The notes: generated by a model not told the origin, from the sequence alone. DNA of 32,000 nt from Mycobacterium sp. (GCA_035721065.1 DASTNJ010000031.1:32368-64367); one strand, 5' to 3'; counted from the first letter of the stretch, positions 3,381 to 13,898 are shown. Numbers and translations: made by a program.

Positions 3381-4283
3381 GTGACTTCACAACCCGGACC
3401 GCCGTCCAACCTGGCCGTCGGCGTCGTCAAGGCGCTGCGGCCGCGCCAGTGGGTGAAGAACGTCCTGGTGCTGGCCGCCCCGCTGGCCGCGCTGGGCAGT
3501 GGCGTGCACTACGACTACGCCGACGTGCTGGTCAAGTCGCTGATCGCGGTCGGGGTGTTCTGCCTGGCCGCGTCGTCGATCTACCTGGTGAACGACGCCC
3601 GCGACGTCGAGGCCGACCGCGCGCACCCGACCAAGCGGTTCCGCCCGATCGCCGCCGGCGTGGTTCCGCCGTGGCTGGCCTACACGCTGGCGGCGCTGCT
3701 CGCCGCGGTCTCCCTGGGCGTGTCGTGGTGGCTGACTCCGAACCTGGCCCTGGTGATGGCGATCTACCTGGTCCTGCAACTGGCCTACTGCTTCGGCCTG
3801 AAGCACCAGGCGGTGATCGACATCTCGATCAACACGTCGGGGTTCCTGCTGCGGGCCATCGCCGGCGGCGTCGCGGCCGGCATCCCGCTGTCGCAATGGT
3901 TCCTGCTGGTGATGGCGTTCGGGTCGATGTTCATGGCGGCCGGCAAGCGTTACGCCGAACTGCAGCTCGCCGAGAGCACCGGGGCCAAGATCCGCAAGGC
4001 GCTGGAGAACTACACCGGCACCTACCTGCGGTTCGTCTGGACGATGTCGGCCACCGCGGCAGTGGTCTGCTACAGCCTGTTCGCGTTCGAGCGCGACCAC
4101 GGCTCCGGCTCCTGGTACGCGGTGTCGATCATCCCGATCGCCATCGGGCTGCTGCGGTACGCCGTCGACGTCGACGGCGGCATGGCCGGCGAGCCCGAGG
4201 ACGTGCTGCGGCGGGACCGGGTGCTGCAACTGCTGGCGCTGGCCTGGATCGGAACCATCGGTGCTGCCGTCGCTTTCGGCTAG
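3381..4283 (+). CDS. ubiA: Decaprenyl-phosphate 5-phosphoribosyltransferase (DPPR synthase, UbiA family)
   Basis: GTG 3381 gives VTSQPGPPSNLAVGVVKALRPRQWVKNVLVLAAPLAALG..., colinear with the remembered Rv3806c (302 aa; 300 aa here). It has the UbiA Asp-rich motif YLVNDARDVEADRAHPTKRFRPIA, is polytopic and hydrophobic, and has the C-terminus LALAWIGTIGAAVAFG. The track start at 3294 would overlap the upstream gene by 68 nt. Confidence 0.9.
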   Translation: MTSQPGPPSNLAVGVVKALRPRQWVKNVLVLAAPLAALGSGVHYDYADVLVKSLIAVGVFCLAASSIYLVNDARDVEADRAHPTKRFRPIAAGVVPPWLAYTLAALLAAVSLGVSWWLTPNLALVMAIYLVLQLAYCFGLKHQAVIDISINTSGFLLRAIAGGVAAGIPLSQWFLLVMAFGSMFMAAGKRYAELQLAESTGAKIRKALENYTGTYLRFVWTMSATAAVVCYSLFAFERDHGSGSWYAVSIIPIAIGLLRYAVDVDGGMAGEPEDVLRRDRVLQLLALAWIGTIGAAVAFG

Positions 4284-4290
4284 CCCGCGG

Positions 4291-6291
4291 GTGCGGGCGG
4301 TGGCGCGGGCCGGCGAGGTCCGCCAGATCAGCCTGCTGACGAGTGTGGCGGTGACCGCGGTGCTGTTCGGCTGGGGCGCCTGGCAGCGGCGGTGGATCTC
4401 CGACGACGGGCTGATCGTGCTGCGCACCGTGCGCAACCTGCTGGCCGGCAACGGGCCGGTGTTCAACGCCGGCGAACGGGTGGAGGCCAACACCTCGGCG
4501 GCCTGGACCTACCTGATGTACCTGAGCTGCTGGCTGGGCGGGCCGATGCGGACGGAGTACATGGCACTGGCCGTCGCGCTGATCCTCAGTGTGCTCGGCA
4601 TCGTGCTGGTGATGCTGGGCACCGCCCGGCTGTACGCGCCCGGGCTGCGGGGCCGAAGCGCGTTGCTGCTGCCGGCCGGGGCGCTGGCCTACATCGCGCT
4701 GCCGCCCGCACGCGACTTCGCGACGTCCGGACTGGAGAACGGCCTGGTGCTGGCCTACCTGGGCCTGCTCTGGCTGATGCTGGTGCACTGGGCCCAGACG
4801 CCGGTGCCGATCACGCCGGCCCGGCCGGTGCCGGCCCGCCGGTGGGTGTTCATCGGCTCGCTGGCCTTCGTCGCCGGGCTCAGCGTGCTGGTGCGGCCCG
4901 AGCTGGCGCTGATCGGCGGGGGCGCGCTGATCATGCTGCTGCTCGCGGTCCGCGGCTGGCGGGCCCGGGGGCTGGTGGTGGTGGCCGGCGGGCTGGTCCC
5001 GGTGGCCTATCAGGTGTTCCGGATGGGCTACTACGCGCTGCTGGTGCCCGGCACCGCGCTGGCCAAGGACGCGGCCGGCGACAAGTGGTCGCAGGGGATG
5101 ATCTACCTGGCCAACTTCAACGCGCCCTACTCGCTGTGGGTGCCGGCCGTGCTGCTGACGGTGCTCGGGCTGCTGCTGGCGGTCGCGGTGGGACGTCAGC
5201 GGTCGGCGCGCAGCCTGCCGCCGGCCGGTTTCCGCCGCGTCAGCCGGGGAGTGCAGCGCCCGGCAGTGGTGGTGTGGTTCATGGTGGCCAGCGGCCTGCT
5301 GCAGGGGGCCTACTGGGTTCGGCAGGGCGGCGACTTCATGCACGCCCGCGTGCTGCTGGTGCCGCTGTTCTGTGTGCTGGCCCCGGTGGCCGTCATCCCG
5401 GTGCTGTTGCCCAGCGGCGACCGGCTCTCCCGGGACGCCCAGTACTGGCTGGCCGGGACGGTCGGCGCGCTGTGGCTCGGCACCGCCGGCTGGGCGCTGT
5501 GGGCGGCGAACTCGCCGGGCATGGGCGCCGACGGAACCCGGGTCACCTACTCGGGCATCGTCGACGAACGGCGGTTCTACTCGCAGGCCACCGGCCAGGC
5601 GCACCCGCTGACCGCCGCCGACTACCTGGACTACCCGCGGATGCGCGCGGTGCTGACCACGATCAACAACACCCCGCAGGGTGCGCTGCTGCTGCCGTCG
5701 GGCAACTACGACCAGTGGGACCTGGTGCCGGCCATCCTGCCGGTGCCGCCGATGCCCGGCACCCCGCCGAACCCGGACCCGGATGGCACCGGCCCGCACA
5801 CGGTGTTCTTCACCAACCTCGGCATGCTGGGCATGAACACCGGCCTCGACGTGCGGGTGCTGGACCAGATCGGGCTGGTCAATCCGCTCGCGGCGCACAC
5901 CGACCGGGTGCAGCACGCCCGGATCGGGCACGACAAGGACATCTTCCCGGACTGGATCATCGCCGACGGCCCGTGGGTGAAGTGGTATCCGGGCATTCCG
6001 GGCTACCTGGAGCAGCAGTGGGTGGCCGAGGCTCAGGCGGCGCTGAGCTGCCCGGCCACCGACGCGGTGCTGCACTCGGTCCGCGCCCCGCTGGGCGTGC
6101 ACCTGTTCATCTCGAACTTCCTGCACGCCGCCACCTTCACCAAATACCGGATCGACCGGGTGCCGCGCTACGAGCTGATCCGGTGCGGGCTCGACGTGCC
6201 CGAACTGCCCCCGCCGCCGGAGGGGCAGCCGGGCTCTGCCGCCGGCCCCGGCCAGGGGCCCTACACGGGGCTGCCGGCCGAAGGCCCCTGA
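4291..6291 (+). CDS. aftB: Terminal beta-(1->2)-arabinofuranosyltransferase AftB (GT-C)
   Basis: Colinear with the remembered Rv3805c. Shared stretches include AVLFGWGAWQRRWISDDGLIVLRTVRNLLAGNGPVFNAGERVEANTS, ARDFATSGLENGLVLAYLGLLW, QGGDFMHARVLLVPLFCVLAPVAVIPVLLP, VTYSGIVDERRFY and HARIGHDKDIFPDWIIADGPWVKWYPGIPGYLEQQW. The start is ambiguous (GTG 4261, 4291 or 4300). The C-terminus is a Pro/Gly-rich tail. Confidence 0.88.
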   Translation: MRAVARAGEVRQISLLTSVAVTAVLFGWGAWQRRWISDDGLIVLRTVRNLLAGNGPVFNAGERVEANTSAAWTYLMYLSCWLGGPMRTEYMALAVALILSVLGIVLVMLGTARLYAPGLRGRSALLLPAGALAYIALPPARDFATSGLENGLVLAYLGLLWLMLVHWAQTPVPITPARPVPARRWVFIGSLAFVAGLSVLVRPELALIGGGALIMLLLAVRGWRARGLVVVAGGLVPVAYQVFRMGYYALLVPGTALAKDAAGDKWSQGMIYLANFNAPYSLWVPAVLLTVLGLLLAVAVGRQRSARSLPPAGFRRVSRGVQRPAVVVWFMVASGLLQGAYWVRQGGDFMHARVLLVPLFCVLAPVAVIPVLLPSGDRLSRDAQYWLAGTVGALWLGTAGWALWAANSPGMGADGTRVTYSGIVDERRFYSQATGQAHPLTAADYLDYPRMRAVLTTINNTPQGALLLPSGNYDQWDLVPAILPVPPMPGTPPNPDPDGTGPHTVFFTNLGMLGMNTGLDVRVLDQIGLVNPLAAHTDRVQHARIGHDKDIFPDWIIADGPWVKWYPGIPGYLEQQWVAEAQAALSCPATDAVLHSVRAPLGVHLFISNFLHAATFTKYRIDRVPRYELIRCGLDVPELPPPPEGQPGSAAGPGQGPYTGLPAEGP

Positions 6292-6349: not shown

Positions 6350-6439
6350 GACAACAGATTTCGACCAAAGTGCTGCGCCGCAAAAACCTGTGGGTTTACT
6401 GTATGCCTACTTAATCGACTCAGTGGCGAGCAGGCGGGG

Positions 6440-8530
6440 GTGCCGGCCATGGCCCATCGGCGGAGCGCGAAAACTCATCGACGGTCCGGCCCGGCCGCGC
6501 CGCGCCGTTCCCGGCGGGTGGTCGGTCTCGGCGGCGCGATCAGCGCCTTCCTGACATTCGGGGTGGCGCCGGTGGCCGACCTGCCGAAAGCGCGCGCCGA
6601 CGAGTTCGACCAGATCTTCGACCAGGTGCTGGACGCGCTGAACAGCGCCGACGCCGCGCCGGGGGCGACCGCCGCGCTCGACGCGGGCGGTGTGGCTGCG
6701 GTGAATCCGTTTGCCGCGTTGGTGGATGGGTTGGAGCGGGATTGGCTGGCCAGTTCGGTGGGCCAGCAGCTGGATGGGGTGTTGAATGCGGGGTTTGGGC
6801 AGGCTGATCCGGGTGCGGTGACGGCTGCGGGGGCGTGTGGGTGGATCTGTGATGGTGCCAACGGGGTGGGGGGTGGTTCGCTGGCGGCCGCCGAAGGTCA
6901 GGGTGGCGGGTTGTTGTTCGGCAATGGCGGCAATGGTGCCACCGATGCGGCCGGTGTTGGTGGTGCCGGTGGTGATGGCGGGTTGTGGTTCGGCAATGGC
7001 GGTAACGGGGGTGCCGGGGCGGCGGGGGCCGATGGCGCGGACGGGTCGGCGGGGTCGGCCGGTGGTGCCGGGGCTGTTGGGGGTGCCGGCGGGGCCGGTG
7101 GTGATGCGACCGGGTTGTTCAGCAGCGGCGGTGATGGTGGTGCCGGCGGTGTCGGCGGTGCTGGCGGGACCGGGGGCGCGGGCGGGCCCGGTGAGGCGGG
7201 CGGGTCCGGCGGGTCCAGCGGGGCCGGCGGCGCCGGGGGTGCTGGTGGTTCGGGTGGCGTGTTGGGTCATGCCGGGGCTGACGGGGCCGCTGGCGGGTCC
7301 GGGCAGAGCGGTGGTGGTGGCGCGGGTGGGGGTGAGGTCGGGGCGACCGGTCCGGTGGGGGCGACGGGTCCGGCGGGGCCGGCCGGGGCGACCGGTGTGG
7401 CCGGTGATACCGGGGCGACGGGTCCGGTGGGGGCGACCGGGGCGACCGGTGTGGCCGGTGATACCGGGGCGACGGGTCCGGCCGGGGCGACCGGGGCGAC
7501 GGGGGCGACGGGTCCGGCTGGGGCGACGGGTCCGGCCGGGGCGACCGGCCCGACCGGCCCGGCCGGCCCGACCGGGCCGACCGGTCCAACCGGCCCGCCG
7601 CCGACCCCGAGCGTGGGCACCACCATCACGCCGAGCCCCTCGACCACCAGCTTCCTGGGCGGCGATGCGGCGAGCCCGACCGCCGTCTACGTCGTGGACG
7701 GTGGCTTCGGCAGCCTGCTGGTGATCCCCACCACGGGCCAATTCGCCAACACCGTCCATGACACCATCGCCATCGACCCCACCACGTCGGATTACGAACC
7801 AGCAGACGTGGCGGTCAGTCCCGCAACCGGCGGCGACGTATACGTCACCAACGACAACATCGTCAACCCGACGGCCGACGGCACGGTCTCGGTGATCGAC
7901 CCCTCCACGAATGCGGTCATCGCCACCATCCCCGTCGGCGTCGATCCGCAGGGCGTGGCGGTGAGCCCGGAAACCGGAAACGACGTCTACGTCGTCAACG
8001 AAAATCCCGGCGGCACCGGGTCGGTCTCGGTGATCGACCCCGCCACCGACAACGTCGTCGCCACCATCCCCGTCGGCAGCGGGCCGACCAGCGTGGCGAT
8101 GGGCTCCAACGGCGATGCCTACGTCGCCAACACCGGGGGCAACGTGTCGGTGATCGACACCGCCACCAACACGGTGGTCGCCACCCTCGCCGTCCCGCTC
8201 CCGAACGGTGTGGCGGTGGGCCCCAACGGCGACGTCTACGTGGCCGCCGGCGACGCGGTGGTGTTCTCCAACGGCACCGTCACCGCCACCATCCCGGTCG
8301 GCACCACCCCATTCGGCGTGGCGGTGAGCCCCACCGGCGACTACGTCTATGTCACCAACAACGGCAGCGACAACGTATCGGTGATCGACCCGTCCAACGA
8401 CACGGTCGTCGTCACTCTCCCCGTCGGCCAGTCACCGGAGGGTGTGGCGGTGGTTCCCAGCGGCAGCGCAGCCGGCTACACCTACGTCGTCAACGTCGGC
8501 AGCGACACGGTGACGGCGATCAAGCCTTAG
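6440..8530 (+). CDS. Secreted mosaic protein: signal peptide + PGRS-like Gly-rich domain + collagen-like triple-helix repeat + YVTN-type beta-propeller
   Basis: 696-aa ORF starting at GTG 6440, or at ATG 6449 which has GCGGGGG 8 nt upstream. The N-terminus is basic (RRSRRVV), followed by a hydrophobic core ([18 protein letters not shown]) and an ARA|DE cleavage-like site. Then come a Gly-rich block, 30 G-X-Y triplets, a T/S/P linker and about 7 repeats of about 40 aa. Strong GC3 bias runs throughout this frame. Confidence 0.8.
6860..7330 (+). repeat. PGRS-like polymorphic Gly-rich coding block (no PE domain upstream)
   Basis: About aa 141-297. It contains [43 protein letters not shown] and runs of GGAGG/GGSGG/GGTGG, which is the motif grammar of PE_PGRS C-terminal domains as I remember it. 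Confidence 0.65.
7331..7600 (+). repeat. Collagen-like region, 30 uninterrupted G-X-Y triplets
   Basis: I counted [90 protein letters not shown]. This is in frame with ORF 6440 (7331-6440 = 891 = 297 codons). Confidence 0.85.
7385..7492 (+). repeat. 54-bp tandem duplication inside the collagen-like region (52/54 identical)
   Basis: 7385-7438 and 7439-7492 are both GGGGCGACCGGTGTGGCCGGTGATACCGGGGCGACGGGTCCGG followed by TGGGGGCGACC or CCGGGGCGACC. The period is 18 codons. Confidence 0.9.
7682..8527 (+). repeat. About 7 YVTN-family beta-propeller repeats (coding)
   Basis: A recurring unit of about 40 aa, for example [74 protein letters not shown] and [30 protein letters not shown]. It matches the 40-residue YVTN repeat pattern from memory. 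Confidence 0.75.
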
Positions 8531-8720: not shown

Positions 8721-9842
<1,122 letters not shown>

Positions 9843-12343: not shown

Positions 12344-12697
12344 TCAGGCGCGCAGCGACGCCCCGTCGAGATCGATCCCGATCACCCCGGCGACCCGGTC
12401 GAGGTCGGCGTCCCAGCAGAGCAGGGTGGCGTCATGACGATATGCCACCGCCGCGATCATGCAGCCGACCATTCCGCGCGGGGTGACTCCGGCCTGCCGG
12501 CACCGTCGGTAGATGCGCGTCGCCGCGTCGAAGTCGGCGACCGGATCGAAGGGCAGCAACCCGAAGCGCCGCAGCATGCTGCGCAGCGCGCGTTCCTGCG
12601 TGTCACTTCGTGCGCCGGCCGTCACTTCCATCACCACCGGCTCGGTGACCACCAGTTCGCCGTCGGTGGCGATCAGTTCGGCAAGGCGTTGATCCAC
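12344..12697 (-). pseudogene. VapC-like PIN-domain toxin lacking its N-terminal acidic motif (truncated or frameshifted)
   Basis: The 117-aa ORF (V)DQRLAELIATDGELVVTEPVVMEVTAGARS...FDAATRIYRRCRQAGVTPRGMVGCMIAAVAYRHDATLLCWDADLDRVAGVIG has the middle and C-terminal PIN motifs. The in-frame upstream sequence (..SSGAYDRATGSV) runs into a stop at 12782-12784 before any xxDTS first-Asp motif. No cognate antitoxin ORF lies upstream. Confidence 0.55.
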
Positions 12698-12842: not shown

Positions 12843-12901
12843 ATTCACCAGCAGATGTATCATTTCGTCTACATAGCCATCAAATGCGTGGAGATGACAC
12901 A

Positions 12902-13147
12902 ATGTCGCGGACGATGATAGATATTGACGACGACGCGCTGGCCGCTGCCCAGGCGCGGCTGGGGACGTCGACGAAGGTCCAGACGGTGAACGAGGCGCTC
13001 CGACTCGCCGCGACGCCCCAGAGCCAGGAGCCGACGGCGCGATCGGTGATCGCGCTGCTTGCGGACTCCGAGATCGACGACCCTCTGGTGACGTCGGCGG
13101 CATGGCGAAGCGTCCCGCACCTCGAGTCGCGGGGACTGTCCGAGTGA
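12902..13147 (+). CDS. vapB: Type II antitoxin, VapB family (Rv0623-like fold suspected)
   Basis: MSRTMIDIDDDALAAAQARLGTSTKVQTVNEALRLAA... is the classic N-terminus of this mycobacterial antitoxin class. It is about 81 aa, sits immediately upstream of a PIN gene, and follows a low-GC putative promoter stretch at 12843-12901 (TATCAT at 12858-12863). Confidence 0.8.
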   Translation: MSRTMIDIDDDALAAAQARLGTSTKVQTVNEALRLAATPQSQEPTARSVIALLADSEIDDPLVTSAAWRSVPHLESRGLSE

Positions 13148-13191
13148 GTCTGCGACTGATCGGCGCACCGGACACCGCGCCGGCCGGGTTG

Positions 13192-13605
13192 ATGCTCATC
13201 GACACCAGCGCCTATGCGCAGATCAAGCATCATCCGCAAGCTGCCGAGCGGTTCACCGGCCTGGCCGCCCGCGGGCTGCTCGCAACCTGCAACGTGGTCT
13301 CGGCTGAGGTGCTGTACAGCATGGCGGGCATCACCTCGATCCGTGCCATGCGGGCGACCCTCGACGGCCTCTGGTATCTGCCGCTGACGGAGTGGTCCGA
13401 GATGCGCGCGCTGGAAACCCTGGTCAAACTCGCCGAGCGGGGAAAGCACCGGGCCGCCAAGGTAGGCGACCTGCAGATCGCCGCCGTCGCCGAGCAGTAC
13501 CGTGCGACCCTGCTGCACTACGACCACGACTTCGAGGACATCGCGGAGGTCACCGGGCAACCGGTCGAGTGGATTGTGCCGCGCGGAGCGGGCCACGGTG
13601 GTTGA
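13192..13605 (+). CDS. vapC: Type II toxin VapC (PIN-domain ribonuclease)
   Basis: The MLIDTSAY N-terminus carries the first Asp. SAEVLYS carries the Glu, GDLQIAAVAE the third acidic residue, and LLHYDHDFEDIAEV the fourth. An alternative start is GTG 13144, which overlaps the vapB stop (GTGA) and would add 16 aa. Confidence 0.85.
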   Translation: MLIDTSAYAQIKHHPQAAERFTGLAARGLLATCNVVSAEVLYSMAGITSIRAMRATLDGLWYLPLTEWSEMRALETLVKLAERGKHRAAKVGDLQIAAVAEQYRATLLHYDHDFEDIAEVTGQPVEWIVPRGAGHGG

Positions 13606-13898
13606 GGCGAGCGCGGGCGTACATCCGTGGTCGCCGTCCAGAAACCAGCGATCATCGATCCGCTCATGACGCACGTCACAAGCTCATAACACGAGTACGG
13701 TTTGATTTGGCGTGCACGCGAACGACCCCTAACATTAAGAGCTGTTTAAGACCTCAAAAGGCGGGGAGCCCCGGTCGGCGCCGGGCGCCGATGCGGCGGT
13801 CGGTCACCGGCGGGCCGTACACAAGCCACAGATGAGCTAGGCGAGCAGACACACTCGGCGTGCGGGCGCCCGCAGAGTTTGCGACAGGAGAACAAGGC

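Follow-up and report, generated by a model that had tools for sequence, protein, structure and literature searches.

The gene between aftB and fbpA

The window analysed here is a 32,000-nucleotide stretch of Mycobacterium sp. DNA (GCA_035721065.1, DASTNJ010000031.1:32368-64367). The subject of this study is the open reading frame (ORF) that lies on its plus strand between aftB and an fbpA-like gene (6440/6449..8530), referred to below as the window gene. The ORF is single and intact and has 696 aa when counted from GTG 6440. Since the first two residues encoded from ATG 6449 (M1-A2) align with the start of most family members, this codon, 9 nt inside the GTG-opened frame, is almost certainly the true start. 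Met-Ala is conserved at the family N-termini, including those of the relatives P0041 and P0070, and a GGGGG stretch is located about 10 nt 5' of the ATG. The resulting product has 693 aa, and residues are numbered from ATG 6449 throughout. As listed in Table 1, it presents a signal peptide, a helical N-domain, a glycine-rich block, a collagen-like region, a linker, and a YVTN β-propeller. It is probably an exported, modular protein of the envelope or cell surface, from an unnamed Mycobacteriaceae family whose members share a signal peptide, N-domain, and PGRS cassette.

Table 1. Positions of the window gene, its modules, and neighbouring features in the window.
Feature	Position	Strand	Basis or remark
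Window gene, 693 aa + stop	6449..8530	+	ORF and alignment with relatives
Predicted signal peptide, residues 1-50	6449..6598	+	Hydropathy profile and family-wide conservation
N-domain, residues 51-129, helical, with 'LExDW..SS.GQ..D..LN' stretch	6599..6835	+	Alignments, profile search, AlphaFold2
PGRS-like Gly-rich block, residues 130-294 (165 aa)	6836..7330	+	49% Gly; PF21526 21.4 bits, below cutoff
Collagen-like region, residues 295-384, 30 uninterrupted G-X-Y triplets	7331..7600	+	PF01391 29.7 bits vs 27.2 cutoff
54-bp (six-triplet) tandem repeat, ~4 copies	7358..7587	+	84-87% match; Tandem Repeats Finder
Thr/Ser/Pro-rich linker, residues 385-410	7601..7678	+	AlphaFold2 pLDDT <50
Seven-bladed YVTN β-propeller (predicted), residues 411-693, first blade degenerate	7679..8527	+	TIGR02276 and AlphaFold2
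120-bp tandem repeat within propeller, 1.8 copies	8027..8245	+	79% match; Tandem Repeats Finder
aftB, upstream flank	4261..6291	+	NF041481 terminal β-(1->2)-arabinofuranosyltransferase, 1106 bits vs 1050 cutoff
Weak terminator-like hairpin with T-rich tail	6378-6393	+
fbpA-like mycolyltransferase, downstream flank	8853..9842	+	PF00756 Esterase, E 2e-61
PIN-domain (VapC-like) ORF	12344-12697	-	PF01850, E 8e-10
264-aa ORF	12880-13674	-	No Pfam match

A family with a shared N-terminal cassette

A homology search with the full-length protein was uninformative, its matches being dominated by collagen repeats. When the low-complexity middle was removed from the query, generic YVTN propellers dominated and the top matches covered about 50% of the query. 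The one informative search used a family profile (A3) composed of the leader and N-domain and trimmed before the glycine repeats. It identified 443 cluster representatives among 1.84 billion at E <= 1e-3, with 230 at E <= 1e-10 and 26 at E <= 1e-30. Alignments of the window protein with family members show 38-48% identity, and the alignment with L088 extends over the full length (41% identity, E 3e-120). The family has an 'AGAFLAFGL'-type hydrophobic region in its leader and an N-domain of the form 'LEQDW..S..GQ..D..LN', both of which are found in the window protein.

Two metagenome proteins, P0041 and P0070, consist of the leader, the N-domain, a 'CG(F/W)ICxG' motif, a glycine-rich block, and a YVTN propeller, with no collagen block. 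The window architecture, less the collagen block, is present in at least six environmental sequences (P0041, P0070 as a three-member cluster, P0269, L088, L091, and L114). These six mycobacterium-like sequences were automatically annotated by JGI as 'YVTN family beta-propeller protein'. A preliminary description of this DNA, made from the sequence alone, had stated that no mycobacterial protein of this architecture was known; that statement was mistaken for all but the collagen block.

The C-terminal passenger varies among family members. In addition to the six propeller proteins, a PecA-type aspartic-peptidase-like domain is found in P0348 (PF20729 164 bits, NF038019 146 bits), a GH5/endoglycoceramidase-like domain in P0372, P0395, and P0306, and an α/β-hydrolase in L095, while many members have only glycine repeats in ORFs of up to ~2000 aa. 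The leader, N-domain, and PGRS block are best described as a reusable N-terminal cassette with a variable C-terminal passenger. Given 443 representatives and several passenger types, the window gene is not a unique mosaic; it is a family member with one extra module.

The 685-aa metagenome protein P0348 presents a signal peptide, an N-domain, a PGRS block (75.7 bits), and then the PecA-type domain, with no PE domain. Its C-terminal domain is of the 'PE domain-processing' aspartic-protease-like type, scoring 146.4 bits against a cutoff of 150 for NF038019. P0348 is a counterpart of PE_PGRS35/PecA with a leader for the general secretory (Sec) or twin-arginine translocation (Tat) pathway.

The complete genome of [Mycobacterium] kokjensenii, a species of the genus Mycolicibacter, encodes one family member, P0265. 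A tandem cluster of genes for glycine-rich proteins with twin-arginine (RR) signals is found in this genome (L134 1-12933, OY726394.1 3987843-4000775). The cluster includes a 958-aa paralogue (profile E 1e-27), a 5626-aa glycine-rich product that is cut, and a 3428-aa gene with the same leader and a different N-region. P0265 itself (310 aa) abuts a 440-aa ORF that may be its frameshifted continuation. Apart from PGRS, the cluster products gave no Pfam match. In a recent review, the pe_pgrs count is given as zero for Mycolicibacter terrae and M. engbaekii (PMC12209268). Since a cluster of the family lies in Mycolicibacter, where these two species are reported to have none, it appears that PGRS domains are not limited to the PE_PGRS family or to the clade in which PE_PGRS genes have been counted.

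The leader and the N-domain

The leader has the n-h-c profile of a signal peptide. Its n-region (residues 1-23) contains eight Arg and one Lys, with RR at 22-23, and ends in S-R-R. The h-region (residues 24-43) is made of 20 uncharged residues rich in Gly and Ala, with Kyte-Doolittle values of up to 1.77. The c-region, DLPKARA, is followed by D51-E52, and cleavage is predicted between ARA and DE. The leader contains no lipobox Cys. Among 102 family members with intact N-termini, an AxA site followed by D, E, or G is present in 101, and the n-regions hold 5-12 Lys/Arg. An RR pair lies just before the h-region in 93 of the 102, RxR in six, and neither in three. The basic, RR-containing, signal-like N-terminus with its ARA/DE site was therefore described correctly at the outset.

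In Tat signals, hydrophobic residues come after the RR pair, the hydrophobicity of the h-region is weak, the c-region is basic, and there is an AxA site. Tat-like traits of the window leader are the sequence S-R-R-V-V-G-L, the uncharged Gly/Ala-rich h-region, and the Lys and Arg of the c-region. The RR is partly compositional, given the general Arg richness of the family n-regions. From these traits, both Sec and Tat are possible as export routes. The leader itself reads as a general secretory type and not as a type VII signal.

The N-domain that follows is predicted by AlphaFold2 (AF2) to be helical at residues 51-69 and 87-127. No Pfam or NCBIfam model matches it. The PE domain (PF00934, about 110 aa) gave no Pfam match in the window protein at E <= 0.01, nor in the N-domain at E <= 10, and an hhalign comparison of the N-domain profile with the PE-PGRS protein P0093 returned a probability of 2%, which is to say no detectable homology to PE. 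Homology of the N-domain or the linker to PE was rejected, as the resemblance of VDAVINQPFLTLFDRPLIGDGAPG to the PE_PGRS linker has an E of 30. Thus a PE domain is absent before the PGRS-like block, with a conserved signal-peptide-type leader in its place. The contrast in export with PE_PGRS proteins drawn in the preliminary description is real at the level of sequence, and it extends to the whole cassette family.

The glycine-rich block

In PE_PGRS proteins, a GRPLI motif is conserved between the leader domain and the PGRS domain, and the latter has been proposed to form a 'sail', a polyglycine-II sandwich with a lipid-facing hydrophobic edge (PMC9436101, PMC10216338). An Arg/Pro 'lock' has been ascribed to GRPLI (PMC10216338). 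The block of the window protein has canonical PGRS-type motifs with the hydrophobic turns LLF, LWF, GLF, and VL. At its entry, where PE_PGRS proteins have GRPLIGNGANG, are C130 and C134, the sole two Cys of the protein. AF2 models residues ~130-190 without helix or strand at a pLDDT (predicted value of the local distance difference test) of 81-91. Of the early claim of a PGRS block of about 160 residues without a PE domain, the length, glycine content, motifs, and lack of PE stood, while the PF21526 score fell below the cutoff.

On PF21526, relatives that share the N-domain reach 35-76 bits (maximum 75.7). P0348 enters its glycine-rich block through the GRPLI-like FDRPLIGDGAPG (DRPLIGDGAPG) and is one of several members with entries of this kind. 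Because of these scores and entries, the block of the cassette family can be regarded as a genuine PGRS domain, despite the sub-cutoff score of the window copy.

The collagen-like region and linker

The 30 uninterrupted G-X-Y triplets and the T/S/P linker behind them had been noted from the sequence, and the count proved exact. The triplets are GAT (12), GPA (six), GPT (four), and others. Pro occupies X in 13/30 triplets (43%) and Thr occupies Y in 18/30 (60%), compared to 31% Pro at X and 48% Thr at Y in Gram-positive collagen-like proteins (PMC8968730). By this measure, the composition of the block is typical of bacterial collagen-like proteins. The linker might serve as a site of O-mannosylation.

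When 1.94 Mb of related DNA was scanned in six frames, only one other G-X-Y run of at least 10 triplets came up; therefore, the collagen-like block is not background of GC-rich DNA. The other run (L083 2-412, +) has 45 uninterrupted triplets of GSQ, GAT, GAK, and GAQ that continue to the stop codon; they form the 3' part of a gene that the contig start truncates. An N-domain/PGRS family gene is located 2.3 kb downstream of this run, whose collagen-like type differs from that of the window.

None of the ~45 metagenomic relatives has a G-X-Y run of more than eight triplets. At the PGRS-propeller junction of L088 there is a short G-X-Y stretch of seven triplets (GHAGADGTHGATGAAGAL / GLFGHAGADGTHGATGAAGALV). 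The window protein has the same junction stretch, after which come the 30 triplets and then the T/S/P linker. Given the 54-bp tandem structure and the short G-X-Y junction of the relatives, the block most probably arose within this lineage from a G-X-Y seed at the junction, through tandem duplication of a 54-bp unit. The collagen-like insert is found in no relative, and is one of two new elements of the window protein.

Other origins and affiliations of the block found no support. For an LPXTG-anchored adhesin like Scl1/Scl2, the scores are far below the cutoffs (NF038329, SclB-like, E 1e-10 over a stretch and 40.9 bits vs 325; NF038330, 24.1 bits vs 400), and the protein has no LPXTG motif, with its C-terminus reading TVTAIKP. 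For a phage origin, 50,697 phage records were searched without any match to the DNA of the block, and plasmid matches cover only the propeller, in unrelated genera; in both searches, the low-complexity filter of BLAST may hide repeats.

The YVTN propeller

Approximately seven YVTN blades of 40 residues had been proposed for the C-terminal part. The YVTN repeat model TIGR02276 matches here in five stretches (E 5e-39, 132 bits vs a cutoff of 27.85), and the sequence also matches the propeller of a Methanosarcina S-layer protein (PDB: 1L0Q, E 4.7e-41). AF2 places ~28 strands in residues ~410-693 with pLDDT = 85-97. A Foldseek search with this model identified 1L0Q (E 1.4e-19, 36% identity) followed by YncE (3VGZ/3VH0), Lp49, and hydrazine synthase β; target TM-scores for 1L0Q, 3VGZ/3VH0, 5C2V_B, and 3BWS were 0.56-0.76. 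A closed seven-bladed YVTN propeller is thus predicted with confidence, in keeping with the blade count of the preliminary description. The collagen and YVTN domain matches that it expected are both present (PF01391 and TIGR02276, with the scores given above and in Table 1).

The 120-bp tandem repeat within the propeller corresponds to two adjacent blades that are unusually alike in DNA, a sign that one blade may have been duplicated, or the two homogenised, recently. A match to the MmpL3/TtfA transport complex stabilizer model NF048007 (28.5 bits, E 8e-7, against a cutoff of 600) was rejected as generic YVTN similarity.

The aftB-fbpA junction and its surroundings

The gene order in the window is glf, glfT2, a PAP2 phosphatase gene, ubiA, aftB, the window gene, and genes for fbpA-like and fbpD-like Ag85-type esterases. 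It continues with a cutinase-like gene, a PIN-domain ORF, fadD32, pks13, accD4, a major facilitator superfamily transporter gene, and, on the opposite strand, genes for two Emb arabinosyltransferases. This is a conserved mycobacterial cell-envelope cluster. The end of aftB is separated from ATG 6449 by 157 bp. The fbpA-like ORF opens at 8739, and its likely start, ATG 8853, is 322 bp past the stop of the window gene. Its product is 63-79% identical to that of the gene after aftB in 80 other loci, with matches that begin at query residues 33-37.

These 80 loci were sampled from at least 560 aftB loci in species-representative Mycobacteriaceae genomes, a collection in which closer relatives may exist. 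An fbpA-like gene follows aftB in all 80, at a gap of ~150-350 bp in every locus except one with 833 bp. No match to the window gene, its N-domain, or its propeller was found within 10 kb on either side of aftB in any of the 80. The early view that this junction is free of genes in M. tuberculosis and M. smegmatis extends broadly to this sample, and the window gene can be considered a lineage-specific insertion at a junction that is otherwise gene-free. The only enlarged gap (~833 bp), in Candidatus Mycobacterium methanotrophicum, holds an unrelated 195-aa ORF that overlaps the end of aftB (L036 11836-12423). Thus, lineages other than that of the window do occasionally have an ORF at this junction.

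The closest of the 80 genomes are those of Mycolicibacter species, with only ~74% amino acid identity to the window over five flanking genes. The exact window protein, from either start, has no match in a collection of 15 billion proteins. Neither spacer that flanks the window gene contains DNA conserved with the 80 loci, and direct or inverted repeats in these spacers do not exceed chance (an 11-bp match), leaving no insertion scar. A search of the same two spacers found no sigma-70-like promoter. The weak terminator-like hairpin is in the AT-richer part of the 157-bp aftB spacer and is compatible with the window gene having its own promoter.

The window gene does adjoin mycolyltransferase genes, as had been noted, with the two Ag85-type esterase genes directly downstream. 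Among ~45 family members, five of them with propellers, none has aftB or fbpA as a neighbour. The position of the window gene beside aftB and fbpA is therefore most likely incidental, and a functional link to the neighbouring mycolyltransferases, implied by the preliminary description, is without support.

The PIN-domain ORF is found ~4 kb downstream of the window gene, past the cutinase-like gene and before fadD32. None of the 80 aftB loci contains a homologue of it, so it is a second lineage-specific insertion in the same cell-envelope cluster. No clear antitoxin ORF was seen upstream of it. The 264-aa ORF between the PIN-domain ORF and fadD32 is possibly a shadow ORF, or else may belong to the same insertion.

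Comparison with known systems

PE-family proteins with a C-terminal YVTN propeller, aspartic proteinase, endoglucanase, or α/β-hydrolase have been described (Sultana et al. 2016, PMC4758615), and the PE-PGRS-YVTN combination is seen in P0093. From these examples, the pairing of PGRS and propeller is already known, and the architecture is not unprecedented as had been supposed. What appears new is a PGRS block coupled to a leader of the Sec/Tat type, found in a lineage whose nearest relatives are Mycolicibacter. No description of signal-peptide-led PGRS proteins or of mycobacterial collagen-like proteins was found in the openly searchable literature, which is incomplete for subscription journals.

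With PE_PGRS proteins that carry passengers (PE-PGRS-YVTN, PecA/PE_PGRS35, LipY), the window protein shares a glycine-rich block of the GGA/GGN type with hydrophobic and aromatic turns, an I-x-(N/D)-G-A-N-G entry, and a functional module at the C-terminus. The passenger set of the signal-peptide family (YVTN, aspartic-peptidase-like, endoglucanase/GH5, and α/β-hydrolase) matches the published PE set. In contrast to these proteins, the window protein has no PE domain; an RR signal peptide, predicted to be cleavable, and an unannotated helical N-domain are present instead. GRPLI is replaced by CGWIC in the window subfamily, and the collagen-like block has no counterpart. The implied route of export would be Sec or Tat rather than ESX-5, and the lineage of the window is nearest to Mycolicibacter, the genus of the two species without pe_pgrs genes (PMC12209268).

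The metagenome YVTN relatives (P0041, P0070, P0269, L088, L091, and L114) have the leader, N-domain, CG(F/L/W)ICNG motif, PGRS block, and propeller in the same order as the window protein. They differ in that the junction between PGRS and propeller has at most seven triplets, where the window protein adds 30 triplets and the T/S/P linker (~115 residues), and in their genomic contexts.

Outside of the mycobacteria, BclA of Bacillus (GPT-rich; PDB: 1WCK) and Scl1/Scl2 of Streptococcus pyogenes are comparable in the length of uninterrupted G-X-Y repeats, in their non-collagenous flanking domains, in a preference for Pro at X and Thr at Y, and in the logic of a stalk with a globular head. Unlike them, the window protein has neither a recognised trimerisation domain (the C1q-like C-terminal domain of BclA, the V domain of Scl) nor a motif of the LPXTG or exosporium-targeting kind. 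It contains very few charged residues, and its head is a propeller. Other proteins combine collagen and YVTN modules (P0049, 630 aa; P0003 and P0007, 968 aa), with a collagen-like region directly before a YVTN/YncE-type propeller. Since their N-termini are unrelated, PGRS is absent, and the identity of 28-39% is driven by repeats, the likeness is best read as a convergent domain combination, not as orthology. The Methanosarcina mazei surface-layer protein 1L0Q and E. coli YncE share the seven-bladed propeller of 40-residue YVTN repeats and an extracytoplasmic or cell-surface context with the window protein. Their partner domains are not those of the window protein (1L0Q has PKD, YncE has none), and no shared ligand is known.

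Proposed model and alternatives

In the proposed model, the leader would carry the window protein over the plasma membrane via Sec or Tat and would be cut between ARA and DE. The PGRS block would fold as a small polyglycine-II sandwich, with C130-x3-C134 possibly forming a disulfide outside the cytoplasm in place of the Arg/Pro lock of GRPLI in this subfamily. Following the PE_PGRS 'sail' model (PMC9436101), the LLF, LWF, and GLF turns would constitute a lipid-facing edge and the C-terminal modules would be displayed. Through the 30 triplets, three chains would associate as a stalk ~26 nm long (0.286 nm per residue over 90 residues) that carries three propeller heads, which may bind a ligand. 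Thr at the Y position and the T/S/P linker are possible glycosylation sites.

Several observations weigh against this model. A Sec or Tat substrate ends in the periplasm, which leaves the crossing of the mycomembrane unexplained. The PF21526 score of the window block (21.4 bits, E 3e-4) is under the 27-bit gathering cutoff, and the canonical GRPLI motif is absent, with only the I-x-(N/D)-GANG part aligning with PE_PGRS. The only PDB fold match of the glycine-rich block is a non-significant one to an antifreeze protein that is a polyproline II bundle (E 0.07, probability 0.38). With pLDDT < 50 over residues 205-409, the second half of the block and the collagen-like region are unmodelled. Pfam and NCBIfam scans recognised no trimerisation domain beside the collagen-like region, neither a monomeric propeller nor a polyglycine-II sail has a known trimerising role, and charged residues in the region are scarce (2 Asp and 1 Glu in 90). 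Most family members are metagenome fragments of unknown taxonomy. Lastly, with the nearest relatives only ~74% identical over the flanking genes, selection on the window gene is not demonstrable.

Some of these points lend themselves to a different account of the collagen-like block, which could be an extended, possibly glycosylated low-complexity spacer produced by replication slippage in a monomeric protein with no triple helix. The block is a young 54-bp tandem array (84-87% identity) found in no relative, and the lack of an adjacent trimerisation domain and the three charged residues in 90 also agree with a spacer. AF2 assigns the block pLDDT < 35, but a triple helix is beyond what the prediction of a monomer could reveal. 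However, Gly is never lost over 30 triplets despite 13-16% divergence between repeat copies, which suggests a period-3 constraint on Gly. The levels of Pro at X and Thr at Y are as in bacterial proteins that form triple helices, such as those with BclA-type GPT repeats (PMC8968730). There is also a weak match to the BclA structure 1WCK, and the PF01391 score is above its cutoff. A spacer is considered possible but less likely than not.

The location of the window gene, on the same strand as aftB and the two mycolyltransferase genes that flank it, could be functional if the product were a periplasmic or cell-wall scaffold for arabinan capping by AftB and mycolyl transfer by Ag85, akin to the propeller of the MmpL3/TtfA complex. 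The match to NF048007 would fit such a role, and a 26-nm stalk would approximate the thickness of the envelope. Yet that match falls far short of the 600-bit cutoff and is accounted for by general likeness among YVTN propellers, none of the ~45 family members (including the five with propellers) adjoins aftB or fbpA, and 80/80 species do without the gene at this junction. The insertion of the PIN-domain ORF in the same cluster further suggests that the locus tolerates insertions in this lineage. A scaffold function is accordingly improbable. More improbable still is that a PE_PGRS gene has decayed with the loss of its PE domain, or that the ORF, in repetitive DNA rich in GC, is spurious or has no function. 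A PGRS-like block with a YVTN passenger does occur in PE proteins (P0093; PMC4758615), and the database entries of many family members are interrupted within the glycine repeats. Against decay, the N-terminus is a conserved signal peptide and N-domain in 443 representatives, which does not resemble PE and has a near-invariant AxA site followed by D. Over its 2.1 kb the ORF has no interruption, its domain matches are in frame throughout (E down to 5e-39), and in the propeller part a GC content at third codon positions of 0.90 fits coding and AF2 pLDDT exceeds 90.

The reading of the window protein as an exported member of the cassette family may be taken further, if tentatively. A parallel, unnamed family would set the PGRS 'sail' and the same passengers behind a Sec/Tat signal. 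PGRS domains would then not be restricted to PE/ESX-5 substrates. PGRS would be an envelope-anchoring module independent of the export route that may predate its capture by PE, and the window gene would encode what seems to be the first collagen-type trimeric stalk in mycobacteria. This wider proposal is plausible but more doubtful than not; in Mycolicibacter, the family occurs in tandem clusters in which some genes are giant.

Implications

A long-standing puzzle of the PE_PGRS proteins is how the glycine-rich domain reaches and holds the mycomembrane, and whether ESX-5 and the PE domain are needed to do so. The cassette family provides a natural comparison, with a PGRS block and passengers behind what appears to be an ordinary signal peptide. 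Its presence in a genus with no pe_pgrs genes tabulated for two species bears on the origin of PGRS. The collagen-like insert offers a view of how a trimeric stalk could arise by a few duplications of a six-triplet seed. If the collagen-like block folds, mycobacteria would join the bacteria that make collagen-like surface proteins, and if it is expressed, the window protein would be a candidate lineage-specific surface antigen or adhesin.

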